Shown here: piece by piece, positions 3,581 to 33,884 of the stretch
Position numbering within the stretch: position 1 is the first letter of the stretch
How the letters are laid out: every line of letters starts with the position of its first letter
Assembly: GCA_973895155.1 (NCBI GenBank)
Contig: OZ316892.1
Location: 29,766,932 to 29,830,931 of the forward strand
Direction of reading: 5' to 3'
Length of the DNA: 64,000 nt
Source of the DNA: Marsupella aquatica
Taxonomy: Eukaryota; Plantae; Marchantiophyta
The notes under the pieces: model-generated
The model's database searches: none
The model's input: only the letters and a program-made list of their open reading frames with translations
Told to the model about the DNA's origin: nothing
Position numbers and translations under genes: made by a program

Positions 3581-3749
3581 CACTCTGAACCACACAACCC
3601 GAAGTCAGGGGAGGCAGAGTCAATTACATTCAAAGTGTTTCTTTACAAACTCTTCTCGAGCAAACCTTAGAGCACCCAAAATGGACTAGAGGAATGAGGA
3701 GTGCGATAAATTTATCGGATGTTTGCAGCAATGCCTCATCCACTCAGAC

Positions 3750-4130
3750 TCGTCCATGCCATGCAAGAATTGTCCGCTTCCCGCTTTCTCCAAGATTTAT
3801 CCAAACTCTACGAAACTGATCTAACTACTCATACGAAAAGCACCCAAGCATATCTATGGGAGGGAGGAAATGAGTTTCCTCTCGGAAGACCCTAGCAATA
3901 TGTATGTTTGAGAGAAGGTCGGCATTAGGAATGCTTGCGAGCATTTTGTTTATGTCATTGATCTCACGGACTGCATATTTCAATAGCGCCCAAAATCGTG
4001 TACCAACAACAAGATGGTTCCATTTCTTTGAGGTGGCTCCAAGACAAATGATTGTTCTCATTCGAGTTAGTCGTTCTTCTGGTAGATTTCCAATATATAC
4101 CTATTGTCCACGGAGTGCAATCGACCTTCC
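3750..4130 (-). pseudogene. Remnant of an F-box-like cargo gene, homologous to 26205-26756
   Basis: MRTIICLGATSKKWNHLVVGTRFWALLK...ETHFLPPIDMLGCFSYE aligns with LKTMVWLGCTSKKWNHLVICTRVWGILR...ETPNLPPIDFLGLFSRY. Confidence 0.75.
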
Positions 4131-7100
4131 GTTGTGCCTCCTAAACCCGGCAACAGTGCGACATCAGAGATGAAGATGAGTCTCCAAACAAAACAAAGGA
4201 AAATTATTCTCATAGGAGGATGCGATAAGTTTATCGCACTCCGCATTTGAATTGAAAATATGACTTCCTCAGACACCTAACCCCTGAATTCAATCTTTCA
4301 CAAAAATGACAACTCTGATAAATTTATCGGATTCTCAATTACTCCTCTTTCCATGAAAGGAATGAAGACTCCGATAAATTTATCGAAATGAAGGCAACAC
4401 CTCTCTAAACACTGGATCAAATGATTGCAACGGAGGAATGCAGAATGCGATAAATTTATCGCAGTCCGCTCGGATCTGGATATTTTACACTAAATGACTA
4501 GTTAGTCTTACATGGAGAACTTGAACAGGAATGGCTGTTCCGATAAATTTATCGGGTTTTCGGTAGAAAGAGTCGAATCGCTTGGGATGAATGTAAGACT
4601 CGATGGGAGTTTGGTATTCGCTCTCAGTCAGGAGATATTTGCTCTGGCAAAAGCAAATGTTTTATGGGCAGCCCGCTCCTCTTTATATAGGAGACGCTCT
4701 AAACCATGGTTAATTTCCCCTTAACCATGGTTAAGTTTCCCCTTTACCTGGGTTAGTGCGTGGTCGTTCCTAGATTACGTGGTTCAGACCAAGTTACTCG
4801 CAGTTCAGACTTTTTCACTGATGGAATGTAAAACCCGATGCACGTATCGCTCCCTACATTCCCACGGCGATGCAATGGAGGAAAGTGGCGTTTCGGAGAG
4901 TTTTTGCCAGTTTTATCGGTCATTGCATTGCCTTAGAAAAAAAACGGGATCGGGCTAAACGAGAACTCCGACACACTTCTCGGTCGGTCCGAAATCGTGT
5001 TAACCTCTCGAGCCAAAACCATTTTTGTAGTGAACAAGAAATATGTCATCTTGGAAAAACAATCCACGATCGTTAAGATGAAGTTGTTGTCGTGGGACTC
5101 AGGTAACCCAACAATGAAGTCCATGGAGCCGCGGCTACTGGTAAAGGTTGCAAAAGTCCTCCTTTTGCCCTATAGACCGTTCAGTTCTTTTGGCACGAGT
5201 AACAACTTTGCATGTGGCAAAGAACCGATTGCTTCATGTCTGGCCAATACTGACACATCTCGCGACATACTACGGTACGTAGCAGCTTGTCCACCATGCC
5301 CACGTACCCCAAGGTGAGTCGTGGTACTTTTGCAAAATCTCAAGTCTTAGAGACTCTGGTATGTATACCCGCCTCTGCTTGTATCGCCATACTTGGACAT
5401 CATGCACGGCATCCAACCCCTATGATATGACTTGTGCCTCACCTTGCCTTGGCTACCCCCTTGCTTTGCCATTCACTGGCTAACCTGTCATCCCCATACG
5501 CCTTGGCCAAAACCTTTGGCCACTCGGTTTCGAGCATCGTGATCCCATTGACACGATGATGGTCCCTACGCGATAAAGCGTCAACTGCCGTGTTTGTCTT
5601 CCCAAGAACGTGACGGACTTCAAAATCAAAATCTGCCAAGAACATCTGCCAGCGCATTTCTTTGGGGTTCAGCCTTGGCTTAGAACTGACGTACCCGGCC
5701 GAAGAGCTATCTGTGTGTATTATCACCTTGGGTCCGTTCTTAAGGTAAATCTCCCACTTCTTCAATGCGTAGATCACAACATACATTTCCCTTTCTGGAG
5801 TGATCCAACAATTCTCCAACTTACATGACTCAAAGGCCACCGGACGCCTATCTTGGTGAAGATAGGCGCCAATGGCATAATCACTTGCGTCTGTCCAAAT
5901 CTCGAACGACTTTCCCATCTCAAGTAGCTTTAGAACTGACGGCATTATCATTAGCCGCTTGAGTTCTAGGAATGCTAACTCACAATCCTGTGTCCACACA
6001 AACACTTTGTTTTTCATTGTTGGTGCGTTTAGAGGCCTCGCAATCCTCGCATAGTCTTTCATGTATCTCCAATAGAACCCAGTAAATCCTAAGAAGGCCC
6101 TAACCTGCCTTACATTGGATGGGTGTTCCCATTCTTTCATTGATCTCCTTAAGCTTGTCTTGACTAGGCGTAATCCCTTCCGGGGTAAAAGTATGGCCGA
6201 GGAACTGAATCTCGTTCATCACAAACTCGCACTTGCTAGGTTTAGCAAAGAGATGAGCCTTACCAAGGCGAAAGAATACTTCTCTGAGCAACTGCTCATG
6301 CTCCTCCAACGTTTTTGAGTAGATCAGGATGTTGTCAATAAAGACTACCACTCCTTGGTCTAACAAGTCATGAAATATGGTATTCATCATTTTCATGATT
6401 GTTGCAGTTGCGTTACACAACCCGAACGACATAACCAAAAACTCGTAGGATCCGAACCTTGTGCGCATTGCGGTCTTGTACTCATCTCCCTTTGCCATGC
6501 GAATCTGGTAATACCCAGACCGCAAGTCCTCGGCGCAAGTCCACCTTTGAAAACTTCTTAGCCCCGGAGAGGCAATCGAAGAGATCATCCATATGAGGTA
6601 ACAGGTACTTGTTCTTTACCATTTGCTTGTTGAGGGCCCGATAATCTGCACACAATCTCAAAGTACCATCCTTTTTGGACATAAACAGCGCGGGCGCCCC
6701 ACAAGGACTCTTACTAGGACAAATGAACCCTTGGTCGATCAACTCTTCCAAGGTGTTCTTCAACATCATTCGTTTGTTCAGGTTCAGACAATAAGGAGCT
6801 TTTGCTTGAGGAGCCAAACCTGGCTCTCAACTTGGTGATCCACTTCCCTCCGTGGGGGTAAACCTTTAGGTAGCTTTTGTGAGAGTACATCATTGAATTC
6901 CTCTAAAATCTCAGGAATTTCACCGCAGTCGGGCCCGACCTTAGTTGACTTAGATTTTGGTTGCATAGCAGCCTCCTTAACTAGGTGGAGATAAAAGAAG
7001 AAGCATTCATGTCCACCCTTGAAGTCCTTGAGTTCCACCATTGTTTCGCCAATACACACGGAGACAACCACGACACTTTACTTACTTTGAGAAATCTTTC

Positions 7101-7824
7101 TTTATTTTTGGTAATTTTTTGTACAACAATGGGCTCACCGCCCTTATCGGGAAAACTGAGCACCTCATCCCCCGGTTTCAAGATAACATTGTGCTTCCTG
7201 AGATAGCCTATAGAAAAAATGAAGAACTTTACGGCTAGACCTTCTAGAACGTAGAACATCTCCTGACTAACAAAATTTTGTCGCTCGCCTATGACCTCTA
7301 CCCGAAGTCTATGTACTACTCTCGACACTATCCCTTTTATGTCGTTGGCGAACTTGCACACTAACGGTTGTAACAATTCCTGCACATCCACCCCAAGACG
7401 TGTCGTCGCCTGCCCACTTATGAAGCAGGTAGTTGCGCCTGTATCCACCAAAGCAACACCCATGTTACCGTTAGAAGTGGCATTGACAAAAATCAGCTTG
7501 TTAGGATCCATTGCCTTAACCTTAGGTACTTTCTCTTGCAACAACACCTTCCCTCTAGCAGGAATGTCCCCTATAGGGACCTTGTCAACAACTAAGGGTT
7601 TGGTTAGAGCGATACTTACCTTAAAGCTCTTCTGGCCCCCTTCTTCACTCGGCTTGCCACCTTTCGTGGGACAATCCTTACTTTGATGGCCCATGACGAC
7701 GCACGTGAAGCACAAGCCTTCTGCCCGCCTCTACTCTGTGAGCGCCTGGTTTTTTGCTTTTTACGCCGTTGAGGATTCTTTCTTAACGTGGTTGGTCTTC
7801 CGGTTGCGCTTCGCTTCTCCATTT

Positions 7825-11487: not shown

Positions 11488-13039
11488 CTTGGGTGATGAA
11501 GAGGAGGACCCGTATGCGATTCTTGGTGATGATGATCTCAGGACTCCATCCCCTTCAAAGGAAGATTCTCAGTAATGATTGTAAGCTTTGTCACTAAATC
11601 TCGACCCTTTTGCATTTATCAACTCTCTCTCCCAAATAGAAATTCCAACATCTGAGTTACTGAGTCTTGCTTCATTTCCACAAGGAAGGGAGTTTAGAAT
11701 GGAAGCAAGAGGAATGATTTAGACTACGTTGGAGAATCAAGAAGGCGCTTCTTGATACTTCTGAAAAGCCTTGGGACCTCCCTGAATATATACAAAAAGG
11801 AATTAAGGATATCGACAAGAGTCCATAGTGACTTGGCAAATGAAGGGACGACGATTGTTGAGGGGATCTGACAGGAAGTTTTCAAGGCATCCTTTGATTG
11901 ATAATGAGGCTGCACGTGCGTCAAGATTTGTAGATGAGAGGCTGAGTAAACATTGAGATCTGAGAGTAGTGAAGTATCAACTAGTGAGGAAAGCACAAAG
12001 AATTCAGTTTCCGATAGTTCAGCTGATGTTCATTCAGGATTAGATGACTTTTGATTGTGTCCATATCTTCCTGATATTTGATTATCCTTGTGGATAAAAA
12101 TCACTTCTAACACAGTGACGGACCAAACGAGAAGTATGACCACCAAATGAGAAGTGTGTTTTCGATTTCGCGAAAAATGGCAAAAAATCACTAAAATTAA
12201 GATCAAAAACGCTATTTTGAGGATGAATCCAAAATCGCATCCAACATCGGATTTCAAATCGAGATACTGTCGACGCAAAAACACAGAATTGTCACAATCC
12301 AGAATTCCGATACACTTCATCTAAAAAAAGTGCAAATTCCAAAACCTGGAAAAACAATGCTTTTCACGTGATCCTTCTAAAAGCTAAATCCGAGCGTCAA
12401 ACAAAATGAGTAAAACACAAGATTTCATTTTCGCCATCAAAATGGCAAACTGAAAATGGGATACGGCGTATCCCATTTTGGATTCAACTATTGAACATGG
12501 ACAAAAACCACACCAAATCATTCTCTTGACGCTTCCATTTAACCTCGGGTTAAAAATGTTTGAATTTTTAACTGCGGTAAAATTGAAAACTGCAAAAAAT
12601 TGACCACGGACTATAGTCGAACCACACAATTAGTTAAGTTAACCCGACGACATGTCCGGAAACTTTTTAGCCCATAACGCATGATGAATACGAGATGGGA
12701 TCCAAGTATCCACTATCGTATTCAACCTCAATATTTTCCACTTGCAACTTTGCATCAGGAGATCTTTCGACATGAATACCAACTGAGATCCATGGATCCC
12801 ATTTTTTTTGCAAGTCCAAAAACTGATTAGGAAAATAGGAGGATGAATACCAGATGGGATCCATGGATCCCATCTAGTATTCAACCTCTACATTTTGAAG
12901 TTTTTGCATCGCATACCTTGATATTCCAGTTTGAAGACCAACTGGGATCCACGGCGACTTCCTCAAAAATCTACAATTTAAATTTCAGCATTCTTTGAAA
13001 AGACAGACTCTCACGTGAAAAAACCCTCATACGGACCAA

Positions 13040-13085
13040 TCAGGGAATGCCACGTGTCCAATGCCCCCGAAAACTATAAAAGGAA
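13040..13085 (+). promoter_or_regulatory. Putative transposase promoter (CCAAT at ~13036, G-box GCCACGTG, TATA box CTATAAAAGG)
   Basis: Motifs lie 150-200 bp upstream of the ATG at 13234. Motif match only. Confidence 0.4.
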
Positions 13086-13233
13086 GAGCTCGCATCTGTT
13101 TTTCATCTTCATTTCTCGCGATTACTTTGAGGTTCGTTAAGTATTGAGTAGTTGTTTTCATAGAATACTGTAATCTGAATTTTCTGTGTTGGATACAAAT
13201 ACGTACTCCTATAGAACCCTTGTTTGATTCTCT

Positions 13234-16200
13234 ATGGCGTCTTCAAGTGATGAGTCAATTTACAGTTCAGATGCATCTTCGCCAGATGTTGTTCAAAAAT
13301 TTATTCCATCTTGTTTGATGAATGAATTACCAGCCTCACAGAGAGTAGTGCCAGAGATTTCATTTTCCTCAGAATCTGAGAAATCAGAGTCTGATTCAGA
13401 GTCTTGTAGGAGTGTTGTGGGTGCTCCGATTTCATATTATGTCTCTCCAAGTAAACCTCTTAAACGACGTCTACTTGTAAAGAAGCCTAATGTAGTTCCT
13501 ACGATAGAGACACTTGGTTCACCGCAAACCCTGACAGATCTTCAAAGGTGAAGGCCTCGGTTTTTAATGCCAAGAACAACGTTACCATGTAGGCCCGCCC
13601 GAAGATCTATGTTGGTTTTTCCAATGTCTCGTTCTCCGGGAGTGAAGATAGCTGTGTCCAGTGTTCAATCACAGTTTGAGCGAATGAGGAGTCCAAATGT
13701 GCCGGAATTGCAGGGAGGGGCAGCCTCAGAGCCAAATTTGGTGGGTCGAATACCAAGTGGGATCCCTACTCGAATGTTGAGAAATGGTGAACGCGAATTA
13801 CCTATTTCGTCTCCTTCAGTACCAAATTCCTTGGGTCAAATACAAAGTGGGATCCATGGATCCCACTTAGTATTCCCTCGTGTTATTTTGCAGAATCCTG
13901 TGCCCGAGTCACCGGTCTTACGGACTTCCAACCCGAGTTCCGATGGTGGAATGCGAAATGGGATACGCAGATCCCAATTCGTATTGCGCAACGGAAAATT
14001 ACCAAGTCATGATGCAGAACAGCAAGTGGGAAAGTTTTCACTTTGAAGTCCCGAAGGATGAATACGAGTTGGGATCCATGGATCCCAATCGGTATTCCCA
14101 TCAATTATTTCACAGAGTGGTAAAACTAACAATATGGGACTTCGAAGCCCTTTGGCGAGGATGTAGTGTGAGGTTTTTGGATCTTCCATTGGACGGCAAG
14201 TGCAGAACAAAAGAGGGAAGAGATCTAGTGTCCAAAAAATTCCTCGGAGATTATTGCGAAGTGAGCTGCCGGAGAGAGGGCCCGAAAATTCAAGGGTACA
14301 TGCTAAATTGAAACTTGTCCAAAGATTTTTCAATGGTCAAGATGAGCCCTCAAGTCGAGAAGAATCACCTAGGCTGGGATTACAGTCTCAGAGACAAGTG
14401 GGCGGTACTCCGACTGAAGATGTGAATATCATTAGAAGATTTCAAACTAGAAATCTCCGAACACCTATTACATTTTCAAAAGACTCTGAAGAGAGATCAG
14501 AGGAGGCTGCAAATGACAGAGAAACTGCTGTAATTTCAAATGTTGTTGAAGAGATCCTGGGAGGTGAGATTGTTCATGAAACAGTTACAGAAAATGTGGA
14601 GAGTGGAAACAACTCTACAGAAAATCTTTTTGTTTTAAATTCTAATTCACTAGAAAATAGTGGGGGGGGTAAGTTCTCCCGACACTATTCAGGATAGAGT
14701 AGAGGTGACAAGACCTAGCAAGAAAATCAGAGATCAGATGATTAGAAAAGATAGATTTACCATTGAAAATCTAAAAAAACGCAAAATTAAAGATATTTTT
14801 AAGTATCCCTGTTGTGACAAGTTTTGCTTGAGGTCTCTCGGTCTAGAGGAATGCTCAAAACAACGCAAGTATTATTTTGGTCTTAAACACTTGCAAAAAA
14901 ATATTTTGCTACGAGGTTGTATCGTGAACAACTGTAGTACTTCTCGTTGATATAGTGTAAATGGACAACCTATATGTAGAGGAGGATTCAAGAAACTATA
15001 TTCTTTAGGTAATAATAGATTGGCAACAATCCATGCAAACATGTTTACAAGGATTGAACGAGATACCTTTTGTAAGGAAGACTCACCTTCATTTCTAAAC
15101 TTGGTGGAATGGTTGAAAGATTTTTTGCAAAAAAATATGGATTGTCTTCCCCATAAAGAGATTCATCACTTGCCAGACAATTGGACAAAGCAAGAGATAC
15201 ATGGAATCTTTGAAGCTGAAACAATGTTGCGAGAAGAACAACAAGTTACATATTCTTATTTTTTGCGTGTTTGGAAAAAAAAGTTTCCAAATGTACAAAT
15301 TCCTAAAAGGAGTCGATTTTCTACTTGTGGTCCTTGTACTGAATTCAAGGCTCTTCGGGACAAAGCAACAACTGAAGAGGATAAAAGTAAGTTCCACTAA
15401 CTATAACCTTCAACTTTAATTTGATGACATGTAATTCAATATTTGTCAAAGTTTATCCTTAGTTATTGATTTTTAATTCATTGCTATTGTATCATTTCAG
15501 GAAAGTATAGCAATGCCCTTATGGAGCATCAAAAAGTACAATCATTGGAAATGATGAAGTTAGCCAAGCATCGTAAAAAATGCTATGATGAGCCCAACAA
15601 GTATTTGGGTATTTGTATAGATGGTATGGATCAAAAGAAAATAGAGCTACCACATTTTATTCGTTGTCCAAAGAACATGGATGAAAAGTATTTCATTCCA
15701 ATACATGTTGTAGGTTGTCTCATCTTCAACAGGAACCTTGTAGCAAAAGTATTTTTGACATATTCCAATATCCATAATGATGCAAACTTGACCATACATG
15801 TTATTCAAAATGTATTGAATACATGGGATGGGACATTACCAAGAGTGTTATATCTTCAATTAGATAATACCACTCGGGAAAACAAGAATAAATTCTTGAT
15901 GACTTATCTTCACACGTTAGTAGATTTGAAGATTTTTGACAAGATTAAAGTGGGTTTCTTGTTGGTCGGTCATACACATGACCAGATAGATCAGATGTTA
16001 GTAAATTTTTGTCTAGGTTAAACAAGCACAAAGCATTTCGCTTGGAGACTCTTGAGGATATTATTCGACGAGCATATTCACCTGAAGCTTTGATCATATT
16101 TGTGGATGAAGTAGTCGATTTTCAAAAATTTGTCAATGAAAACGACCAGCCAAATGAGAAGGGAGTCTCAGGTAGAGTCTTGAGAGATCTCAATCTCATA

Positions 16201-17100
16201 ACTTTTCAAAGGCAATTCAGATTCAAACGAGTCATGGAGGATGGAAACGAAGAGACAACATTTCACGGGAAACATCTTTCCACGACCCAGGATTGGGGAG
16301 ATGCAGTGACGTTCGTCAATTACATTCCAACTTCAAGAATGTGGGTTGCTGCACAAATGTCACTGAAATCAGCAAAAGGTGTTGAGAGGGATGATGTCCA
16401 TGATTCTTCCAATACAGATGGTGCATTAACTACTCTGGTGAAATATGAAAAAGCTATCCAGGAAGGTTTCAATTACTTTGACAATGAAGATAAACTTTGG
16501 TGGATGAGTTTTTTTGAGAAACAAAAAGATATTATCAAAAACCACCTAGAGGAAGGTGAGTGGTTATTTGAGTGGGTTTGGCCGCAACAAAATCAAGGTG
16601 CACAACTACTTCCAAGGGTGAGAAATGAACTTGTTGAAGAAGGTGTTGATCCAACTTTGGTTGACAAAGTTGTTGGACCACAGAGAATTATGTACTCCGG
16701 ACCTCGACGAAAGCAAGCTGAATTTGGAGATTTCAGAGATATGGAAGTTAACAATAAGTGGTCCATGATATGTGTAGCGGCACACAAGGATCCAGAAGGC
16801 AAGTTGTTTTGGATGGCAAAGGTGTCAAAGATTTTGACAAGAACTGCAGACATTCCTGAGAGAATCAAAATCACATGGTACACAACTGAGGCAAGTGCTA
16901 AGTCTGCTATTGATGGGAAATATTTTCCAGAGAAAGATAATATATCTAATCGACTTCTCAAAGATGAACTAGTTCTATCATCAACAGCAGTGTATGCATA
17001 CAACTTTGCGCTTTTAAGTACTAATCAAATAGCAGCCAAAACTAAAAAAATTATAGAGTCTGCTATATTAGAGAGAGGTTCTGCACACTCAGAGGATTGA
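13234..17100 (+). pseudogene. Sola-like DDD transposase (DUF7869-type) with one intron (15387-15500); disrupted
   Basis: Cys motifs CCDKFC, ICRGGFKKLYSLG and FSTCGPC. Catalytic-type motifs ICIDGMDQ, LYLQLDNTTRENKN and FLLVGHTHDQIDQ. A phase-1 GT-AG intron joins the frames (..EEDK-R-KYSNALM..). In-frame TGA stops at 13549, 14044, 14059 and 14948. Frameshifts at ~14670 (G run) and ~15999. Confidence 0.85.
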
Positions 17101-17111
17101 GATTGATGTCC

Positions 17112-18023
17112 TTAAACAGGTACATGCATCAATTTTAGAATTTGATCTCGAATGAATTTTCTAAGGTTACATGCTCTTTTACAATTGTACCATTTTTCAG
17201 TAAGTAAAGACTGTGCATCAAGGCATTGTATAATATGCCATTGAATTCTGATTTCGTCCATATTTTGAAGAACAAATAGACCACAATCTGAATTGTTTGG
17301 TTGTTGAGGTACCTGAGAAAGAATCTTAAAGTTAGTCCAAAGTGTTTAATAATTGAACTAAATAAAAGTTGAAATAACTTTTCAAATCCTTACCATTGGA
17401 TTGTATATCTCCACAACTCCCATTGGAACTTTTCCAAAAAATAATTCTCATTTCATTGTAAAATATCTGTAAATTATCATTCAAAGTTATTAGTCCAAAG
17501 TGTTTATATTTATGTACCACATAAATAAATTCAAATTGAAAAAATGTAATAGAATATATACGTACCTGCTAAGTATTGATCCAATTACATGGGTTGAGTG
17601 TAGACCGGCGAGAGAGTCTAGATGATACATTTTGATCAAAGATTCAATCCGATCCAAACATATTACAACCAGACTCCAGTGCATGCTCATGTGAATTGGC
17701 ATGAGAATGACCTCAATTTGGGAAAATGGTGGCTTGTAATAATTCCGCATCTTTTGAATTGATTCCAACAGGGTCTCAACTGGTTCTATTTCAATCCTTG
17801 AAACAAGCCAAGGGTAAAAAAAAGAGGATAATGTGTTTACTGAGGGAGCCAGATCTCCATGTTCCTCGGTTATTAATTGTGGGTAAAATTACATTATTTC
17901 ATCACCCAAATATTGACCGGGTTCAAGTTGGCTCAATATTTTATTGTCCAAAAAAAATCCACTAGAAGGATTGTGTGAGAATTTATGCAGAACATGTTTC
18001 AATACAAAATCCTCCTTTGGTTC
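17112..18023 (-). pseudogene. Ulp1/C48 SUMO-protease domain; exons 18023-17566, 17466-17394, 17312-17112
   Basis: Spliced translation LSQLEPGQYLGDEIM*FY...LSSFFY...ILMPIHMSMHWSLVVI...YHLDSL...NPM|VPQQPNNSDCGLFVL. The His-Asp-Gln/Cys catalytic set is present. Canonical GT-AG introns in compatible phase. Three premature stops. Confidence 0.88.
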
Positions 18024-18135
18024 CTGCAAAGACATTACTTTGTGAAATAAGAACATAGTCCAATCATAATCTTCCTCAATATTTCACAAGTTTGGATCAA
18101 TAGATACAACATGAGAGAACTAATCAAACTTAAGT

Positions 18136-19263
18136 CTACACCTCAAGGAATGAGCCAAGATCAAGTGCCGGAGCTTCATGTTCCACTTCATCCTCATCAT
18201 TGTCGTTCTCCTCCGCAGTTGTAATAATGCAAGTTCCAGTGGTGAGGGTGCTCGTAGTACCACCAATAGGTGGTTGAACCTCAAAGCTCATGGGTCCTGT
18301 ACCCTCCTCGGTTGCTTCATCATTCAAGTCCCACGATTCATCAAGCGTGACAAATCGGGTCCGGATACAATCCACCTGGCTTGCACTGAGCTCCACGGCT
18401 GTCACCGGACGTTTCCCTAACAAGGCAACGCATGAGGTCAAACCACTCCCCGCACATAAATCAGCAACCCAATCCCCTACTTCACTAAAATGTTGAACGA
18501 ACCAATCTGCTAAAGCTATCGGTTTCTGGTAAGGGTTCACTATTTCTCCCAATGGTGTTACACATTTCTTTGTAACACAAGGGACTTTTATGATGTTTAC
18601 CCTTTTCTCATCATGTTCAAAATTGTACATGTCTCTGGTCCTAATACCACTCTCGTGATAATATCCGATTGACCAGTTTTCAAAAGCCCAAGCCAATCGA
18701 TTCCCGGAAGGATGAGCATATACATTTGGCTTCTCCCAAATTCCAGCCTCTACACCTGCGTTACAAGTTTTTCCAAGAGCATTCATCACAGACCAAGTTT
18801 GCTGCAAAGAGTGAATCACAACAAACCTCCACATCTTTGAACTTGTCAACTTGGCAAAACAATTCACCATATCCACAATATCACTCTCTGAAAATGGGAC
18901 CTCATCATTTTCAGAGCCAGACGCATTGAATCCATAAGGAATGTCTGCAATTGCAAGTGTGTAATTCCTTTTCTCTACAAACTTATCCAGCGCCATGACA
19001 TCTCCACAATGCAATGTATATCTGATAAAATTTCCGTCAGTGTTTTTCCATCGATGGTCACTCGACTCTGCTTCAACCGTTTCAATCCCACGATGACGGT
19101 TGTAGTTCTCAATCGCTTCTTGAACATAATTCTTAAACCCCGGGGGAATAACACTCGAAGTCAACTCCTCCGTAGGCTTCTCAACCGCATCGGCACCAAT
19201 TGCATCCTTGTTCTTCTTCTTCAAAAAAGCTTTCAACTGCAAACGCAAACTTGTTAAAAGAAT
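18136..19263 (-). CDS. Beta-class N4-cytosine/N6-adenine DNA methyltransferase domain (exon 2 of the cargo fusion gene; this exon is uninterrupted)
   Basis: TLHCGDVM, LAIADIPY (motif IV, DPPY-like), IWEKPN, NPYQKPIALADWFVQHFSEVGDWVADLCAGSG (motifs X-I), KRPVTAVEL (motif II). Order IV...X-I-II is beta class. Confidence 0.9.
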   Translation of the reverse strand: MLLTSLRLQLKAFLKKKNKDAIGADAVEKPTEELTSSVIPPGFKNYVQEAIENYNRHRGIETVEAESSDHRWKNTDGNFIRYTLHCGDVMALDKFVEKRNYTLAIADIPYGFNASGSENDEVPFSESDIVDMVNCFAKLTSSKMWRFVVIHSLQQTWSVMNALGKTCNAGVEAGIWEKPNVYAHPSGNRLAWAFENWSIGYYHESGIRTRDMYNFEHDEKRVNIIKVPCVTKKCVTPLGEIVNPYQKPIALADWFVQHFSEVGDWVADLCAGSGLTSCVALLGKRPVTAVELSASQVDCIRTRFVTLDESWDLNDEATEEGTGPMSFEVQPPIGGTTSTLTTGTCIITTAEENDNDEDEVEHEAPALDLGSFLEV

Positions 19264-19802
19264 CTGGAGGAAAGACAATGGGGAGATAACCATTTAGGAA
19301 TTCATACAATCAAATCTGGACGACGAATGCGACATGGGATACTCCGTATCCTAGTTCGTATTCAACCAAGCAAAAACCACAGTCAAACATCACCACCGTC
19401 AAATAACCACAAGTGAATCCGAGATGGGATACCCCGTATCCCACTTCGCATTCGACCAAGCAAAAACCACATTGAAACATCTCAAACGTCAAATAACCAC
19501 ATTGAATATGAGATGGGATACCGCGTATCCCACTTCAAATTCAACCAAGCAAAAACCACATTGAGACATCACAAACTTCAAATAACCACAAGTGAATACG
19601 AGATGGGATACCGCGTATCCCACTTGGCATTCAACCAAGAAAAAACCGCATTGAAACATCACCAACATCAAATAAGCACAAGTGAATCCGAGATGGGATA
19701 CCCCGTATCCCACTTCGCATTCCAACAAGAAATCCATGAAGAAAACCTCCAAACATGGCGAAACAAATAGAAAAGTCCAATCAGTGGAAGGGGAGAACAT
19801 AC
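19264..19802 (-). repeat. 539-bp intron filled with five ~90-bp units, each carrying the palindrome GAAT.CGA.ATGGGATAC-NNN-GTATCCCA.TTCG.ATTC
   Basis: Donor GTATGT at 19802 and acceptor TTTCCTCCAG at 19264, both phase 0. Palindromes start at ~19325, 19415, 19504, 19594 and 19684. Confidence 0.85.
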
Positions 19803-21760
19803 CACATCGGACAATTTCCCACTCCATCTTTCAAGCTCGGCAGATTCTGTTTCTTTCGAAAACATTTGTTTGCAAGTCGCCCAGTCTTTCTGCCCTGACA
19901 ACTGAACAAAAAGCTTGCTGATTTTCACAAGTTTCTTGTAACTCTCGGCTTCTTTTGCCATCTGCTCCAAAGAGATCATCCGGTCCTTCACTCGGAGAAG
20001 AAGGGACTCCAAAAATCGGTCATGTTCAATTCCCTAGATTGCTCTCCAAGGTGTCAAGGTAAGGCCCCCTGCAAGCTTATTCAAAGCTTTTGGAATCGAC
20101 TGCGCTTTTCCCTTTCCTTTCTTGAGTTTCTTGATCGGTGACTTCTGCTTATTCTGCCCTTTGATCTCCAACTTGTTCCACATCTCAAAGATCTGGTCTT
20201 GGAGTTTCCAGACCTTACCCGACATAAACGCAATTTGGAAGAGAGGCTCATGCTTCTTCAGGCTTGTGGCGTCCCCCAGAAAAAACCCGTCGAGGCAAAC
20301 CTCCATCGCACACGCTTCTCTAGTCTTCTTGGTTTTTGCCATTCCTCTGGCAATAAAAATCTTATGCATTGTTCGGATTTGATCAATGTTGTTCATTTTT
20401 TTCCTGTACTCCTGATCAATATTATGTTGGATGCTAAGTTTCTGAATGTCCTCCCTTGTGAGACCAGCATACACCCAAGCTTGGAGTTCATTGAAGATCT
20501 CTCTCCCATAAGCCTGATACAATTCTCTCTTGGCCCGTGATTACCTCCAATCACTCGATATCTCCAGCTTGCTGCCTTTTCTGGGTCCCAGTCTGTCATT
20601 GACGGGCAGTCTTCCGGCATCACAAACAAGACAAATGGCGTCGTGAAATTTGTCGGATTCATTTTCATCAAAGTCTTGATGTTCTCCACATGCAACCGAT
20701 CGACTGTTCGAACCAATGTTGAGTTCTCGTTGTCAATATCGTCAACAAGAAGTAGGTTAGTTGTTTTCAGAATAACTGTTGTCTTCTGAACTCGCTTAGT
20801 CTCCATCAACCAAGACACTTCTTCACGAACCACAAGTGTCTCTTCCCACTGCAAAGTTGTGGTGATATCTGTTGAATCATTTTTTTTCTTTAACAGCTCC
20901 TCTAGATGATAAAGAAAACCCACCTGACAAAGTTGAAGGAATCTGAGGTGTCTGTGAAATTGGTGGGACCAAAGATGAGACAACACATGCACACTTCCTG
21001 GTGCAGAAGGCGCGCGCTTCTGGATGTCACATCGATCCAATTTCTTCTTGACAATAGCTTCTCCTGACACCGCTACTTTAGAACCTTCCCCAGAGAGTTG
21101 ATCTGCAAGCTTCCTCTTTGCCGGTTCCTTAAAAGAAACTGTGGCAGATTTCTCCTTTGTCGAGGGTGTTCCAGACATCTCCCCTGACTTCGAAGCCGGA
21201 TTGGTAGGCTTCGTCACTTTCAACTTCAAAGGCCGTTCTTTGACGCCAAAGTCGGCTCCAACAACGGACCTATATGCTACCTTCGTAAAATCCTCAACAA
21301 CCCTCCAAGACTTCAAGACAAATTTCAAACACCAATAAGAAAAGTCCTCAATCTTCGGCACTTCCCAAATTAGTTGGCAGATCGGGTCATCAGGAAATGT
21401 GTTCATCGAGACCCGATCAATTTTCTCGTAGTTGAGGACAACTATAGTGAAGGCATTGTTCGGAAGAATGCAAAGGTACATTGGAATCTTCTTCAGCTAT
21501 TTTGTTTTTGAGTCGGTGATATCCGCCTCCCCGGTGTCCATGACTAATCCATAATGGCAATGGTCTTTACCCTTAACGATAACCAACCACACCGCTGGAC
21601 CTTCATACGCTCTGTGAATATCCATCGCCCGAGCATCCCTGAAGTACCACCTATTCCTCACGAGTTTCTCCTCCGTGTAAAGGTCTTTCTTCCAAATCTC
21701 ATCGACGATGGATGTCCGTGAAGACTGGGTCGAACCAGACGACTTTGATTTATTCGACAT
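19803..21760 (-). pseudogene. Exon 1 of the cargo gene: unknown N-terminal domain + ParB/Srx-like domain + helical region
   Basis: ORFs 21497-21823 and 20393-21481 are in frame across a TAG. A frameshift at ~20530 leads to 20034-20522, which is in frame with 19668-20012 across a second TAG. ParB-like signature VRTVDRLHVENIKTLM...PFVLFV...YRVIGGNH...AKRELY...AWVYAGLT...LSIQHN. Confidence 0.72.
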
Positions 21761-21859
21761 GATCCTGAAAAAGATTGACACACTTAGAACCAGACCAAAC
21801 CACTTGGCATCCAACATCAACAATTGCTAAGTCTGACGCAAAGAACAAAAAAGAGGGAG

Positions 21860-22155
21860 TTGAATGCGAAATGGGATACGCGGTATCCCACTTCGCATCC
21901 AACAACAACAAATGTCCAGAGTTTGATGCAATTAACGAAAAAGAGGGACTTGAATGCGAAATGGGATACGCGGTATCCCACTTCACATCCAACCTCAACA
22001 ATTGCCTCGAGTCTGATGCAAAGCACGAAAAAGAGGGAGTTGAATGAGAGATGGGATACGCGGTATCCCATCTCGTATTCAATATTGAAAAGAAGGCCAA
22101 ATAATAGAGTTGAATACAAACGGGGATACGGCGTATCCCTCTCAGGATTCAACAA
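21860..22155. repeat. Four copies of the ~40-bp GGGATAC-NNN-GTATCCC palindrome (spacing 90, 90, 70 bp) upstream of the cargo gene
   Basis: Copies at ~21861, 21951, 22041 and 22111, read directly. Confidence 0.9.
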
Positions 22156-23276
22156 TTAACCAAACGAGGAGGGGAGAGTTTCTTCAGGTTTTACCTATTT
22201 TTGGTTTTGATTCGAGCAAATACAAAAAGCTATAGAGATGTTGCGGCCCGAGAAAAACGCGGAGGCAAACAAAGTTGTAGCAAGGTGATAAAGAGATAAA
22301 TGACTATTTACTCCTTAACAACTCGATTTCATTCCCGTTAGGAGTGGATAAGATCGAAAAGACCTAATTAACACAATTTGAGAAGTTTACACCAACATTC
22401 TTAGGTTGGAGAGATTTCTAATGATCTCATTAACATAAGTGTTTAACCACAAACTCAAGTGGGTAATCCTTAGGATTCACAGTGCAATAATAAAGACTAG
22501 AATTAATAAAGATTGAAACTAGAGAGAGAGTAGATAGGAGTTTTCAAAGTGCAAGGGAATTGAATTTCTGACCATCACCACTCCTTCAATAAGGATTATG
22601 GCCTAATTTAAGATTCAGAAATCAACATTTTCTATGCTTTTTGATTTCTCGTAGCAACTCTTCTCCATCTCTTGAATTTAGAAGACAACAATGTAAATCA
22701 ACCCGGGACACTTTTCTGGTCTTGCTTAAGACAGTACTAGGATACTCGAATTGGTTTACTTCTCCTACAATCCTTAAGATTGCTTGTTTGAGTGTTGTGC
22801 AAATGTCAATTTTCTCTTTGGTGAATCTTCCAAATGTATTGATCACAAATCTCATTGATCTTTCAATATCATTAAGGCACACTCTAGCATTCATTGAACA
22901 CTTCACAACAACTCAGGGGTTGCTAAAACTTCTTCCTTTTACTCAACCATGGTAAAAAGAAGGGAAGAAAAGACATAGATTTCTCCAAAATCAAAATGGG
23001 GAAATCAAATGTATCTCTCTCCTCTCGGTTGACTTTGGGTCCTCCTCCTTTTGTACTAAAAGTGGAGATTATGAAAAGACATGCCTTTTCAAAACCCAAG
23101 TCTAAAGAAGTATGTAAATAAAAGTAAACTACCCTAGTAAAAAAAATAGAGTAGAGACTCCAATGGGTATATCAACAAAATGCTGGAGTCTACTTACTCA
23201 TATACTAGTCTACATAGCCATTTCTAGGTCTAAACTAATGTGGCTCTAACTCTCTAAGTATAACTCTATTCAGGTC

Positions 23277-25099
23277 CTATCTTCTGGGAAGGAACCTCCT
23301 CAGGGTTAGCCATAGCAAGGGGTCTGGTCGAAGGTAAACTCCTTGCTGGCCAGTGGTAAAAGGGATGGACGGGTCAATATCCATGTTCTCCTGATGGGTA
23401 CTTGGGTCATGAGAATAAGTGTAAGAATGAGAATGGAAGTGGGTACTGGGAGTGGGGAAACCAGGAGGGTTGATGGGTGATGAGGGGCCAGTGGAATAGA
23501 CTCCTGCATGAGGACTAGGAGAGAAAGATCTGGTAGTAAAGGGAGGAATCTCAGTATCAGCTAATAGCTTCTCAGTAGTCAAGTCACTCATCTCCCTTAA
23601 GGCTTCACAGGTCTTTGAGAGGCCTGTAAGTGCATCATCCACCTTGGCACTCACATCTACCACTAAATGGTTAATCTTGGAGAAAAGGATGGGTGTGGTG
23701 TTCTTGGTCAAATACTCATCATAAATCTGGGCCTTAAGAAGATCCAGAGAAGCTATCTTAGTCAAAGGTTCAACCAGATCCAAAGATTGAGTGATACTGA
23801 GTTGGAGAGTATGCTCAAGCTCATTCTTCTTCTTACTCCTTTCCAACTGCTGTTTGAGTTCAGATACCTTCTTTTTGAGGAACTCATTCTCCTTCAGTCC
23901 AACTTCCTCTTATCTGTGGTATCACTCATGGTGGAGATCTTCTCAAGAATCTGCCCTGGTTTCACTCCTAACTTTTGAGAAATGTCAGTGATGGCCTTCT
24001 CCATCACAGTGGTCTTCCTCTTCACCTTCTGGAATGTGTCTGAGATGATCTGGAAATCAGCTAGGGTGTCTAGGGAGGCATGGCCGGGTGCATCCGGAAA
24101 TTCAGCCGGGTCGACGAAGGCCGGGTCGGAAAAGTCCAGGTCGAGGTTTCGGGCAGCAGACCGGGTCTTTCGAGGATTTGTCTCTGCTGGCTCCTCATCC
24201 TCACTGTCATCAGAGGTGGCCTGGGTGATATCTGGATCTGTCTCTCCATACTTTATGAAGTTGAACTTGGCCAATAGTAATTTCTTCTCCTCTCTGAACA
24301 AAACTCCTTCAAAGCTATATAGATGTACCAGGTAGTAGGAGAGGGGAGTAGGACTCTTGTTGGATAGGTTCTGTACCAACTTCCTTATCAAATCAAAGAT
24401 AAGCTTAGCCCAGTTGACTTTTCTTTCTCCCTTGTAAGCAGCAACAATGGTAGAGCCAACTCCAACAGTAACTCTTCTTGGCTTCTCAGGGTACAGCAGG
24501 GATAGCAGAAAGCTGAAGACTCGTCTCAGATCAGGATCCAAACACTTAGAAACATTGAACCCGTCCTTACTGTTGATGGCTCCTTTGAAGTAAGGGAGGA
24601 TTAGATTGACAGCTCTCCCCACTGGACCTTCTCCTTCATCTTCCAATACAAAAGCTCCTGCAATCATCATCTGAGTCCATCGCTCAGGTCGGCCTCTGGA
24701 GGTATCCTTAAACTCAGCCGGATACTCCTTGGATCGGATCTCTCTGATCATATCTTCGCTCTGATAACTCCAGGGTAGCTCCATCAGAGACTCACAGCCC
24801 ATCCTGAGCAAAGACTCCCTCAGTTTGACCTTCTCAGCTTCGCTGTCCGGAATAGCTGGCCTCAGAAGTTTCATGGCAATAGGGACCTCCTTTCTCTTCG
24901 ATCGTCTCACAGGGGCTTTAACCAGAGTAGGTGCAGGTGATGTTGAGGTTGAATGCCCCTTAGAGACGCGAGAAGTGGACATTCCGGCTGGATCCGCCCC
25001 TTTCTCCATAGGATTTCTGGAAGCAGAAAATTGATTTCTCGTAAATTTTCTGCCTCCTCTACGGCAAGCTCTACAATGGTGCGACTTCAGAATGTTCAA
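23277..25099 (-). pseudogene. Unknown ~590-aa TE-associated protein (globular domain, coiled coil, Pro/Ser-rich tail); one frameshift at ~23897
   Basis: The 401-aa ORF 23894-25099 continues after a shift as LKENEFLKKKVSELKQQLERSKKK into 23277-23846. It loosely resembles accessory ORFs of plant mobile elements (recall, not searched). Confidence 0.6.
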
Positions 25100-26204
25100 T
25101 CTCTTCGATTTTGACCACTAGTAGAAATGTCCGGGTCGACCTGGCCGCAACATTTCTGATCAACTGAAAATCGTTTTGGAAGAATTGCATCAAGATTTTG
25201 TCAACCACAATGCAGGGTCATCTAACGTGGGGAAAATCTGGACTCAATCGGGCCTAAAATAGTGATGTCCGGGTCGACCTGGCCTCCCTTCTCACAACCG
25301 ATGTATCCACGATCAGGGTCTCAAACTTCCTGCCTTCACTTCCAGCGGTGGAGTAGGCATTCCCCTCACAACGAATCAGTCAGTACCCTCATATCCAAGC
25401 TCTCATCATACAATGCAAGATTGGTCCTATAATCCGGACCCAAGATCCTCTACCAAAAGGGGAGAGCCTCCTCACTCTACTACTTAAACAGCCTAATGCG
25501 CTCGGGAGCTCAAAACCTACTAAGTTCGGCTTTGAGAGGTGTGAGAGGCCGGATCGACTCTCCTTCCTTATATCCGGATTCTGCTGTGGTCGTGCCTGTG
25601 TTTGACTTATGGTTTTAAAAACTTTGGCAATGCACAACTGTTATTCAGTAGAGTCACTTTGTAAGCTTCCTTATCTCATTATGGTTTATAGTAAAAAGTT
25701 TCGGGTCGATCCTCCTTCTCTAATATCAATCCGGGTAGGCCTCAGCTGGGCTTGAAAGTCTCATAACACGTCAAAGTAGTCTTCAGGTACCTCTTTAGCC
25801 TCATTTGAGATCTTGAACTTAAAAATTCTAAAATTTATGGTTAGTTAACCCTTCTTTCATAAACATCCTTATCTCACAAAAGTTGAGAAGAAAAAGAAAT
25901 GAGAGTAATTTTTCTGACCAGACACTTCTATTTATACTTTATCACCTTTGTATCCACAGGCGATAAGGTTTCCACAGGCGATAATGTGTATCCAAAAGCG
26001 TAGGGTTGGAGTCTGGATGTCTGTATATTTTTTTCTCTTGATGGGACAAGAGATAAGGCATATCCCCAAGTCCTTGTATTCAACCAAATAGATTTTACGC
26101 GTAGCGAATCGGGTAACTCTTTATTCATTCGGAATTGTGCCACAAAAAAAACTAAGTTGATATTCTTAAAAAGAGTCTTTACAAAGAGCCCATTCAAGAT
26201 GGCT

Positions 26205-26756
26205 CTAAACCAGACTAGAAGCTTCCCCATACATTTCCAAGAGCCTCGCTTGCTCATCTTTCTCAAGATTGTGCCAGTCTTCTTGAAATCGATTTAGGTC
26301 ATACCTTGAAAATAAACCTAAGAAATCGATTGGAGGAAGATTCGGTGTTTCCATCCTAACAAAAGCTTCAATATGAACATTCTGAAGGGGTTTTCCATCG
26401 GGAATGCTTGTCAGCATTTCATTTACTTCCTCAAGCTGGCTTTTTGCTAGTCTAAGAATACCCCAGACTCGTGTACAAATTACGAGGTGGTTCCATTTTT
26501 TGGAGGTGCATCCAAGCCACACCATGGTTTTTAATCGCATCAATCTTTCATCAGCTTGGTTCTTGGAGGAATCAAACTCATCCTCTGTACAACAAACTTT
26601 CAAAATGGGCCAAATGAACGTTTCAACAATCTCGTCAAGAAGTCCATCCAAAAGCAATCCAGATTCCCTTTGGCCACTTTTTTGTTGAATTTGTTTCTTC
26701 TCTTTGTCGAATGACATCGCTAACCTTGTAAAGACAGGGTTCTCAGTGACTGCCAT
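26205..26756 (-). CDS. 183-aa F-box-like cargo protein
   Basis: LLDGLLDEIVETFIWPIL...LGCTSKKWNHLV resembles an F-box with an insert (LxxLPxEIxxxIxxxL...VCKxWxxL). A homologue is retained in the 2.5-kb element. Confidence 0.6.
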   Translation of the reverse strand: MAVTENPVFTRLAMSFDKEKKQIQQKSGQRESGLLLDGLLDEIVETFIWPILKVCCTEDEFDSSKNQADERLMRLKTMVWLGCTSKKWNHLVICTRVWGILRLAKSQLEEVNEMLTSIPDGKPLQNVHIEAFVRMETPNLPPIDFLGLFSRYDLNRFQEDWHNLEKDEQARLLEMYGEASSLV

Positions 26757-26991
26757 TCCAAAATAAGAGTGGATACCTGGAGTAATAAATGAGATGGTGA
26801 GCTCTTTCTCAGCAACCTACAAAATAGTGATGGAAAAACTGATTTTATTTCTTTGATCAAAATAAAAATATATTCACAAAATATTTGACCCAAGAACGTT
26901 CACCTAAACACTTACACACTACTCAGAAAATTCAACGCGATAAGTTAACCCAAGGATCTTCGTTCCAAATCCGACAACAAAAATATGCCAA

Positions 26992-27370
26992 TCAATGATA
27001 TTTGTTTTGGGCATCACGACAATAGTTACAAGAAGAATTAACAGAGTGCAGACAACCACTCAAACATATCCTCGACCGAATCGGAACTCCATCCTCATTT
27101 TTTTCACAAAACTCTATTCGGAGTGGATTCAAACTATCATGTGGATCCACGCCTCCGGTCCATAGCGCGCCTAATCCAGGACAAAGAACTTTGAGTGCAA
27201 CTAATTGCTTATACAATCGACGAGCACGTTTCTCAAGGTTTTGATTCTGGACCGCCATGAGACTCACAAGAGAAAACTTCGTTTATCAAGGAAAGCTTAA
27301 GCTTGAGTGGGTGTCGGTCATTGAAAGGCAGCAAGAGCTTCAGTGCGTATAGTTCAGTTGAACTTCGCCT
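26992..27370 (-). CDS. Small Cys/His-rich cargo ORF of unknown function (possibly spliced or decayed)
   Basis: ORF 26992-27267 ends in CLSGCLHSVNSSCNYC. Candidate acceptor TTTTGCAG near 27369. Confidence 0.3.
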
Positions 27371-27459
27371 GCAAAACAATCAGTAATCCATAAGGTTTTC
27401 CCATCATTCAAATAAACTCTAGGTAAATACCACATGGGCAATCAAAACTGGACATTTGA

Positions 27460-28035
27460 AGAGTGAATCCCAAACGGGATACGCCGTATCCCATTTCGCA
27501 TTCAACGTTGAGGTTTTGACATTTGGAGTCTACGATACTTCATATTCGGAGGTTGGATGCGACATGGGATACCCCGTATCCCATTTTGCATCCAACCTCC
27601 TTTTTTAGCTAATGTGAAACAAAAACTTGAAATTTGAGGGTTGAATCCCAAACGGGATACGCCATATCCCATTTGGGATTCGTCCTCGCCATTTTTAGGA
27701 AGATTCTCACCTATTCGTCAAAACTGATTTTTGGGGAATACGAGTTTTTATAGACGGTGTGCATTCGTCGAGACTAAGAGTATACAGAGCGAGAAAAAAT
27801 GAGCGTAAAATTCTCAAGAGGTGATCTCCTATTTATAGTTTTCTCACTGACCGTGGTTAGCTAGTATTTGACTGCAGTTGCATCGCAGTCGGTTAAATGT
27901 TACTGTTGAGAAGAATCATTTTGGAATATTCTTGTCGGGTAAACCAATATCAGCACTTTTACCGCATTTTTTTTTGGAATTCCGCGGTTGGATCCGAAAT
28001 GGGATACGCCGTATCCCATCTTCGTATTCGTGTCG
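27460..28035. repeat. Right subterminal copies of the GGGATAC-NNN-GTATCCC palindrome
   Basis: Copies at ~27465, 27553, 27641 (~88-bp period) and 27989. Confidence 0.9.
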
Positions 28036-28726
28036 ATTTTTCCCATTTTTTCAATTCAAAAAACTAGTTTTTAGTGGGAATACTAATTCCGTATCCAAGA
28101 CTTTTTTGCCTTAGAAACTTTTTTCGCCGCGGGCAAAACGAGAAGTGTGGTCACACTTCTCGTTTGGTCCGTCACCGTGTTTTCTTAAAAGAGTTAAACT
28201 TTCTAGGCATTTGTTCATGGCAAAAGGTTTATGTATTATCTCAAGTGATCTCAATAAAATGTTATGGATTCTTTTTGGTTTATAATTGATCGGGTTTTAT
28301 ATATGATAGAACAATTTTTGCTAGCAACTCTTAGGATAGATTGAAATACTACATTTTCTTTTTTACTCCCAAATTCTGATGTGAAATGTGACCTCCAACT
28401 TTGCTAGCAATGACTCTACCTCGCTAGCAATATCAGTTTTTCCTATCTCCTTTGAACTCCTTTTTACTAACATTGTTAAAACTCCCGTATTTTCAGAATA
28501 ATAAATTCTCCCCCCTATATTTCCACTCTTAAGACCAAATTAACACTAATTCATATGCGCAAAATTAATTAGTGTTATAATAGAATTAGTGTGAGTGACA
28601 CTCATTCCCTGGGCCCTCACTCCGTGTAAAAGAAGTGGACCCCCTACGATCGGGCCCTCTTCCTATTTACCCCTTGTCATTCCATTTTACAATAAAAAGT
28701 TCTCTTATTACCAGTAATAATTATAA

Positions 28727-32723: not shown

Positions 32724-33884
32724 CTACCTAGCAATGCTTTTCAACACCAATACTTCGACTGTCACACCAGGCCCGAATGCCACACAAATTCCCCACTCAG
32801 CTCCTTGTCCAGATGTCGTCGAGTTGTTCTGAACAGACAGCTTTCGCACTTGGTCAAGCACAAACAGAACAGTGGCACCAGACATGTTACCATAGTTATA
32901 AAGCACATCCCTGGTGGCCTTCAGCTTCTCGGGCTTCAAACTTAGTGACTTCTCCAGATCATCGAGGATGGCCCGACCTCCGGGGTGCACTGCCCAGAAG
33001 ATGTCGTTCCAGCCAGGAGACCCGGTCATTTGAGATTGAGCGGCATTGAATATGGGCAGCGTATTCCTTGAAATGATGCCGGGAACTTCCTTCACTAAAT
33101 GAAACATGAGGCCAGCTTCTGTGAGGCGCCCTTCGATTGCACCTTCACTCTCGGGAAGGATAGTTTCTCCTGACCAGTGGATTTCGTAGAGTGGTCTCTC
33201 GCCCTCGAGCGGGTCCGAGCCGATGACTAGTACTGAGGATCCGTCGCCAAACATTGCCGACCCAAGCAAGTTGGCCACATACTCCTCATTAGGGGCCCTG
33301 AAGGTGAGACACGTCGTGAGTTCACTCACCACCGTCAGAACTCGTGCGCCCTTGTTATTCTCAGCCAAATCTTTAGCTACTCGCAGAACTGTGGCTCCTC
33401 CGAAGCACCCTTGCATATACAGCATGGTTCGCTTGACATTGGGGTTCAACCCAAGGAGTCTGGTGAGAGTGAGATCTGCTCCAGGCATGTTGACACTACT
33501 GGTAGTTGCGAATACAACGTGAGTAATCTGCTCTCTGGGTTGGCCCCATTCTTCGAGAGCCTCCTCCGCTGCCTTTGCTGCAAGCCTGGGTACCTCTTTA
33601 ATCGCAATGTCCTGGCGAACATCGAGAGAAGCATCCTTGCACGTACACATCGCTGGATTGGCCTTCAGCACCTCCTCGGTGCAGTGAAAGTACCTCTGGT
33701 TGATCCCAGCGTTTTTGCAGATACGGGCGAACTTCGCCTTGAGCGCAGTCTTCTCATTGCAATTCGTGATGTTGAAGAAGAAATCCGCGTACCCGCTCTG
33801 AGGATGAGCGGTGGGAGGAACAGCTTTGCCAATGGCGAACACGGTGGCCGGCCCCTCCGCTCTCTGATGCCGATACGCAGCCAT
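32724..33884 (-). CDS. Type III polyketide synthase (chalcone/stilbene-carboxylate synthase family), intronless
   Basis: Cys-His-Asn triad in MQGCFGG, AVHPGGRAIL and YGNMSG. Also MFGDG, GLMFHL and AFGPG. First ATG at 33884 (MAAYRHQRAEGPATV). Confidence 0.96.
   Translation of the reverse strand: MAAYRHQRAEGPATVFAIGKAVPPTAHPQSGYADFFFNITNCNEKTALKAKFARICKNAGINQRYFHCTEEVLKANPAMCTCKDASLDVRQDIAIKEVPRLAAKAAEEALEEWGQPREQITHVVFATTSSVNMPGADLTLTRLLGLNPNVKRTMLYMQGCFGGATVLRVAKDLAENNKGARVLTVVSELTTCLTFRAPNEEYVANLLGSAMFGDGSSVLVIGSDPLEGERPLYEIHWSGETILPESEGAIEGRLTEAGLMFHLVKEVPGIISRNTLPIFNAAQSQMTGSPGWNDIFWAVHPGGRAILDDLEKSLSLKPEKLKATRDVLYNYGNMSGATVLFVLDQVRKLSVQNNSTTSGQGAEWGICVAFGPGVTVEVLVLKSIAR

Follow-up and report, generated by a model that had tools for sequence, protein, structure and literature searches.

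A decayed ParB-methyltransferase gene with an adjoining Ulp1 block in a giant, likely Sola1-type transposon of Marsupella aquatica

Introduction

Accessory genes for ParB-like domains and DNA methylases have been described in transposons of algae. Sola1-1_Ec32 of Ectocarpus encodes an accessory protein of 1,104 amino acids (aa) with a ParB-like domain and an N4C/N6A DNA methyltransferase, for which self-binding and self-modification were proposed (PMC12477816). In red algae, the accessory genes PAG2/PAG3 of Plavaka transposons encode a PF01555 methylase and a ParB-like domain, and inverted-repeat arrays were proposed as binding sites of the latter (bioRxiv 10.1101/2025.02.11.637652). A precedent for the joining of Ulp1 to an anti-silencing gene is provided by KIU (Kaonashi) of the VANDAL Mutator-like elements (PMC13317346). 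Here, a stretch of 64,000 nucleotides from the liverwort Marsupella aquatica was analyzed (the window; GenBank assembly GCA_973895155.1, contig OZ316892.1, positions 29,766,932 to 29,830,931). It contains a 16,073-bp DNA transposon, the minus strand of which carries a broken gene for an N-terminal domain, a ParB-fold domain and an amino-methyltransferase, followed by exons of an Ulp1 protease. The locus is almost certainly the decayed accessory ParB-methyltransferase gene of this transposon. As a whole, it is best explained, with slightly more confidence than doubt, as the accessory ParB-methyltransferase of a giant, likely Sola1-type element, with an Ulp1 block that was probably spliced on in some transcripts.

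Both Sola1-1_Ec32 and the present element are giant, have a 4-bp target-site duplication (TSD) and AAC…GTT termini (AACCG-CGGTT in Ectocarpus, AACAC-GTGTT here), and carry opposite the transposase an accessory gene for a protein with a ParB-like domain and an amino-methyltransferase (1,104 versus ~1,030 aa) (PMC12477816). They differ in the host, which is here a land plant, in the length of the terminal inverted repeats (TIRs; 35 bp here versus 282 bp), and in the presence here of a third cargo gene and of family-specific palindromes (PMC12477816). The Ulp1 block is also an addition, as neither 'Ulp1' nor 'SUMO' occurs in the main text of PMC12477816. The ParB-methyltransferase core is a member of the transposon accessory proteins that combine ParB and an amino-methyltransferase, the Ectocarpus protein being compared by description and not by sequence. 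A transposon-borne methylase, a ParB-like domain and repeat arrays are shared with Plavaka PAG2/PAG3; the Plavaka elements, however, are EnSpm-type, their ParB and methylase are encoded by separate genes with a 2-oxoglutarate oxygenase and SET as partners, and Ulp1 is not mentioned in the accessible sections (bioRxiv 10.1101/2025.02.11.637652).

The resemblance to VANC/KIU consists of an accessory protein that acts on family-specific non-coding motifs and of Ulp1 being added in a subset of families, whereas the VANDAL elements are Mutator-type without TIRs, and VANC causes loss of methylation (PMC13317346). The present element has a DUF7869 transposase, TIRs and a 4-bp TSD instead of these Mutator-type, non-TIR features. 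To our knowledge, VANC has neither a ParB nor a methyltransferase domain. By analogy, the gene likely works like VANC/KIU without being one of them. No report of a ParB-methyltransferase-Ulp1 fusion or of a land-plant version of Sola1 was found in the literature, Repbase and bioRxiv supplements lying outside the search.

Gene architecture and decay

The minus-strand fragments from 21760 to 17112 form one collinear series of domains starting at ATG 21760. An N-terminal domain of unassigned fold and a low-complexity linker (21760-20876) are followed by a ParB/Srx-fold domain (about 20800-20440), a helical region resembling the DNA-binding part of ParB (the two together within 20875-19803), a methyltransferase exon (19263-18142) and three Ulp1 exons. 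If all parts are joined, the fused reading amounts to 1,271 aa, in agreement with a previous sequence-only reading that had assembled the same domain order into ~1,270 aa. A protein of ~1,030 aa, consisting of the N-terminal domain, ParB and a beta-class methyltransferase, is well supported. The ParB and methyltransferase exons are separated by a phase-0 GT..AG intron of 539 nt (19802-19264), which had been delineated identically before and which holds an array of the family palindrome. In the four relatives displayed (L001, L002, L004 and L005), the corresponding codon is likewise followed by the intron donor. The region upstream of the start codon (22270-21761) contains four palindromes and, just before the ATG, a splice acceptor that likely closes an intron of the 5' untranslated region (UTR).

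The decay of the window copy was assessed against sister copies in eight comparisons over six distinct sequencing runs, all as contigs. The copy has 8 surplus bases at 20983 (4/4 runs) and lacks 2 bases at 20879 (3/4 runs), two compensating indels, and 7 bases are missing near 20534 (3/4 runs); an in-frame loss of 3 bases at 20945 was seen in 2/4 runs. Because of the three frameshifting indels, about 35 residues of the long frame had earlier been misframed. Four premature stops are present, at 21499 and 20036 (both TAG) and, within Ulp1, at 17891 and 17450, where two TAG stops and one frameshift had been counted. Related loci read through the equivalents of both 21499 and 20036. As judged from its sequence, the window copy is dead and would make neither the ~1,030-aa nor the ~1,270-aa product. 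A domesticated host gene was ruled out by the many copies and the broken gene.

The ParB-fold domain

The sequence-only reading had assigned a ParB/Srx fold to the region around the motif VIGGNH, and was to be abandoned if the region did not model as such. The fold was modelled on the relative L003, which is 45% identical to the ParB segment of the window, and not on the frameshifted window copy. With an alignment-based AlphaFold model of L003 (predicted local distance difference test score 81.5), Foldseek returned ParB or Noc at all of the top 11 ranks (best E 9e-7). The superposition by VIA-align gave PadC with a Z-score of 9.4 and a root-mean-square deviation of 2.5 over 94 residues, and SerK, sulfiredoxin and KorB were matched as well, the Z-scores with PadC included ranging from 9.4 to 8.0. 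As the model matches ParB/Noc, the fold assignment was retained, and a ParB/Srx fold N-terminal to the methyltransferase is supported by this prediction.

At the sequence level, the ParB N-domain was seen by neither Pfam nor PHROGs; a sub-threshold HTH_ParB match was present in L005 only (E 8e-4). The ESM Atlas gave DUF6551, DndB and ParB_N at 0.85-0.88, which serve as leads only. Counting against the overall reading, the arginine after the GGxH-type motif is absent from all 18 sequences listed. Canonical ParB CTPases have a GxxR motif with this arginine, and the domain was therefore filed as ParB-fold and not as a CTPase. The N-terminal domain that precedes it is conserved in L002 (tblastn E 8e-8). 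A JHBP-like identity for that domain, suggested by the ESM Atlas with low recognition, was rejected as unsupported.

The methyltransferase

The exon 19263-18142, called with the same limits before, matches Pfam N6_N4_Mtase with an E-value of 1.6e-6, above the cut-off. Motif IV (DIPY) precedes motif I (DLCAGSG), which is the permuted, beta-class order, and the exon ends in an acidic tail. The best PDB matches of the family profile are beta-class adenine methyltransferases (E 4e-17). The permuted order is shared with M.MboIIA, CcrM and M.RsrI, of the bacterial and phage beta class, and with the eukaryotic N4CMT and MpDN4MT1 (PMC8885841, bioRxiv 10.1101/2021.02.12.428880). The two eukaryotic enzymes, writers of N4-methylcytosine, carry SPPY/TSPPY (PMC8885841, bioRxiv 10.1101/2021.02.12.428880). 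Unlike these beta-class enzymes, the present one has DIPY rather than DPPY or SPPY, is fused to ParB, and is transposon-borne and spliced.

The first residue of motif IV is D in 77, N in 2 and S in none of the 79 matched proteins (among 170, cluster members included). Because motif IV is of the Asp type, N6-adenine is a more likely target than N4-cytosine. Relative to the pattern (D/N/S)PP(Y/F), the DIPY of the window retains the D and the PY; DPPY is found in 19 of the 79 matched relatives, and DLPY is present in one annotated phage methyltransferase. The departure of DIPY from the textbook DPPY counts against the overall reading, and the activity is therefore putative.

Relatives

A phmmer search yielded 308 relatives at E<=0.001, of which the best 150 were listed. 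In many of these relatives the same upstream segments are joined in one protein. Source names were looked up for 30 and included Chara braunii (2), Ginkgo (1), Adiantum (3) and Riccia sorocarpa (2). Six metagenome loci (L001-L006), 53-62% identical, share the gene layout, and methyltransferase and transposase are arranged tail-to-tail in all four relatives long enough to show it. In a quick methyltransferase tree of 53 rows, from which rows aligned over <=170 residues had been dropped, the window groups with L001-L005 and P0001-P0003 in a clade of nine rows. Word-based protein searches for longer forms of the methyltransferase, the ParB part and Ulp1 gave no match, a weak negative since phmmer later found long relatives, and no relative was found in the viral contigs searched.

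The fusion of ParB to a methyltransferase recurs in relatives. The previous attribution of such fusions to phages and integrative and conjugative elements had overlooked the closer eukaryotic case (PMC12477816). A phage or integrative-element origin of the locus was ruled out by the spliceosomal introns and the TIR element. Four ParB-methyltransferase relatives of 690-995 aa (P0043, P0045, P0110 and P0126) come from short assembly contigs; several of them have the canonical DPPY, and they are possibly intact versions from microbial eukaryotes.

The Ulp1 block

The three Ulp1 exons (18023-17566, 17466-17394 and 17312-17112) had been identified previously and give 243 aa, with Peptidase_C48 matches in two of them (E 1.4e-10 and 1e-4, both above the cut-off). 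The catalytic His and Asp are located in the first exon, which is interrupted by TAA 17891, and the Gln and catalytic Cys in the third (PQQPNNSDCG); the second contains TGA 17450. The catalytic triad and the Gln are all intact. Other letters, by which both stops are lost, are found in sister copies at 17891 (4/4 runs) and 17448 (3/4 runs), and the indels that these copies show in the block are intronic or mutually cancelling. An Ulp1 passively captured from the host and left untranslated in the 3' UTR would agree with its absence from all relatives, with the two stops of the window, and with the usual decay of captured fragments (PMC13317346). Such an inert fragment is nevertheless improbable in view of the intact His-Asp-Cys triad and Gln and of sister copies free of both stops.

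Ulp1 lies on the strand of the methyltransferase, 112 bp past its stop, with two introns of its own and an otherwise unpaired acceptor; a 945-bp contig of run X1 spans the methyltransferase tail and Ulp1 in DNA. The 118-nt spacer (18141-18024; 69% AT) begins with GT and ends with TTTGCAG, as had been proposed, and may constitute a phase-0 intron with a strong acceptor and a weak donor, although the junction is putative. Its phase-0 AG/GT falls on the very last methyltransferase codon, for which the chance is 0.011 at any one codon and 0.11 within the last ten. If the transcript stays unspliced, its Ulp1 introns would lie far downstream of the stop, a configuration that invites nonsense-mediated decay. 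Fusion of Ulp1 through the splice GAG/GTGTAG (18141/18024) is the likeliest route to its translation and, as far as the letters can tell, somewhat probable. Neither this joint nor 19802/19264 is among the joints listed for the contigs of the six distinct runs.

Several observations weigh against this splice. The donor GAG/GTGTAG is weak, as A occupies position +3 in all seven trusted donors, and a chance phase-0 AG/GT occurs ten codons from the end in two of six relatives. Two in-frame ATGs, at 18056 and 18035 inside the supposed intron, are open into Ulp1, which had been said to have no start codon of its own. All six related loci stop the methyltransferase at a TAG after the same C-terminal motif (D/E-L-x-x-x-L), and P0001, P0002, P0004, P0007 and P0023 likewise end after a similar one. 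Because six loci and five close proteins end in this manner, the TAG that had been noticed behind the weak donor (18138-18136) is regarded as the ancestral end. Finally, the Ulp1 block was matched by none of 170 related proteins, most of them single-exon calls, and by none of 22 loci. The gap between methyltransferase and transposase measures 316-469 bp in the four relatives reaching the transposase, versus 1,035 bp in the window. On this comparison, Ulp1 is a family-specific captured add-on, not a general trait of the relatives. The fusion claimed by the sequence-only reading is plausible but putative and is not a family trait, the four relatives just mentioned having no Ulp1.

The retention of the ancestral stop and C-terminal motif in all six loci, the weak donor and the two open ATGs would also suit two separate products, a ParB-methyltransferase always ending at TAG 18136 and a small stand-alone Ulp1 cargo gene starting from ATG 18056 or 18035, either from a short promoter of its own or through re-initiation. 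The methyltransferase stop, however, is no more than about 80-100 bp away from these ATGs, and no family palindrome falls in the gap. The start of Ulp1 moreover coincides with a good acceptor, TTTGCAG, whose surroundings are U-rich (41% T) and which would be left without use, and two separate products are considered rather unlikely.

The donor at 19802 could alternatively be joined to the acceptor at 18024, skipping the methyltransferase exon, so that a transcript would encode either the ParB-methyltransferase (~1,030 aa) or a ParB-Ulp1 protein (~900 aa), never both. Donor and acceptor share phase 0 and keep the reading frame, for a product of 897 aa; the donor is strong and conserved, and at the right end of the element a single upstream donor likewise faces two possible acceptors. 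Exon skipping would require the omission of a 1.1-kb exon with a good acceptor, it has no direct support, and its probability is low. Splicing at 18141/18024 thus remains the preferred reading.

The transposon

The element occupies positions 12109-28181. Its 35-bp TIRs (12109-12143, beginning with AACAC, and 28147-28181 on the minus strand) match at 33 of 35 positions. The TSD, TTCT, flanks both ends (12105-12108 and 28182-28185), and an empty-site joint 12104->28182 with four shared letters was present in 3/4 runs. The transposase gene (13235-17100, plus strand, the 5' end at 13235 being inferred) matches DUF7869 in Pfam (E 3.9e-34) and is likely of Sola1 type. It contains an intron near 15390-15500 and, as an indel relative to the sister-copy contigs, a 1-base frameshift near 15997. 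The transposase is 48-74% identical to those of L001, L003, L005 and L006. The three Sola1 traits tested, namely TIRs, a 4-bp TSD and AAC…GTT termini, were all found, with Sola1-1_Ec32 as the single comparator. By these features, the element is likely a giant Sola1-like cut-and-paste DNA transposon, the transposase being assigned by DUF7869 alone.

The transposase gene and the ParB-methyltransferase/Ulp1 gene are convergent, tail-to-tail. Between the stop of the transposase and that of Ulp1 lie 11 bp (17100/17112), so that both 3' UTRs must overlap the opposite gene. These overlapping UTRs are a possible source of double-stranded RNA.

Palindromes and proposed mechanism

The element contains 28 near-palindromes, versus 0-7 in 10 shuffles. 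The motif GGGATAC-N3-GTATCCC, together with a GGGATCC variant, has 17 matches, all within the element and none in the other 48 kb. Fourteen are located in introns, UTR or subterminal DNA and three in the 5' portion of the transposase, which is uncertain; none is found in the methyltransferase, ParB, Ulp1 or core transposase exons. Another motif is carried by L001-L004 and L006, in 3-7 copies per locus, and yet another by L005 (11 copies). The three motifs mark three element families without any cross-match. In analogy to parS and to the arrays beside Plavaka PAG3, the palindromes are taken as candidate binding sites of the ParB part. Two points weigh against this assignment: the patterns were picked by eye after the sequences had been viewed, and the palindromes may be binding sites of the transposase instead.

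If the palindromes are ParB sites, the ParB part would bind those of its own element, like ParB on parS, and the methyltransferase would mark the surrounding element DNA. Read-through of the weak donor would yield the ancestral ~1,030-aa protein, and splicing the ~1,270-aa form, whose optional Ulp1 tail would strip SUMO from silencing proteins on the element chromatin. Copies of the same family would in this way stay transcribable, following the logic of VANC and the Ulp1-bearing KIU in VANDAL. Palindrome-directed self-methylation is, by this analogy, given equal weight for and against. The broader proposal is less likely than not: land-plant Sola1-like transposons would use bacterial ParB/parS-style self-recognition, each ParB-methyltransferase binding its own co-evolving palindrome and writing N6-methyladenine (6mA), here with a spliced SUMO protease in addition.

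Were the proposal true, bacterial parts would have served for an independent reinvention of the anti-silencing design of VANC/KIU, and 6mA in plant DNA would have an enzymatic source. Self-marking by ParB-methylase accessory proteins was proposed without a test in the algal papers; the present locus makes the idea testable in land plants, and three families, with methyltransferases about 55-62% identical and three different palindromes, permit a test of protein-repeat co-evolution. Should the Ulp1 splice prove real, the addition of a SUMO protease to a self-targeting protein would have occurred in two transposon groups that are unrelated, VANDAL and the present one, and SUMO would emerge as a common silencing hurdle.

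Other features of the window

A 3.6-kb insertion (22276-25878), nested in the transposon and outside its own gene set, has TG…CA ends and a 5-bp duplication, AAAGT; the joint 22270->25879 was present in 4/4 runs. It contains two open reading frames (ORFs; 407 and 210 aa), with a weak Transposase_32 match (E 0.26). No internal pair of long terminal repeats was found in 22276-25878. The third cargo gene (27258-26205, minus strand) was read as a Cys-rich first exon, interrupted by one stop, and a second exon of 203 aa, which has no Pfam or PHROG match. It lies between a TATA box at the right end and the ParB-methyltransferase gene, and the relative L002 does not have it. The right end has one promoter and donor (27835-27690, minus strand) that could splice to the third cargo gene or, prior to the nested insertion, to the acceptor at 21764 before ATG 21760.

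Outside the transposon, a type III polyketide synthase gene (32724-33929, minus strand) has stilbenecarboxylate synthase 1, a liverwort enzyme, as its nearest match (688 bits versus 526 for the next one), which agrees with a liverwort host. Segmental repeats about 12.4 kb apart occupy 40999-45840, 53372-58617 and 62988-64000, within which an ORF labelled by eye as U-box-like is duplicated (41862-42413 and 54293-54844). At 2064-7730, on the minus strand, a decayed Gypsy-type retrotransposon was recognized by eye from fragments of integrase, reverse transcriptase and protease.

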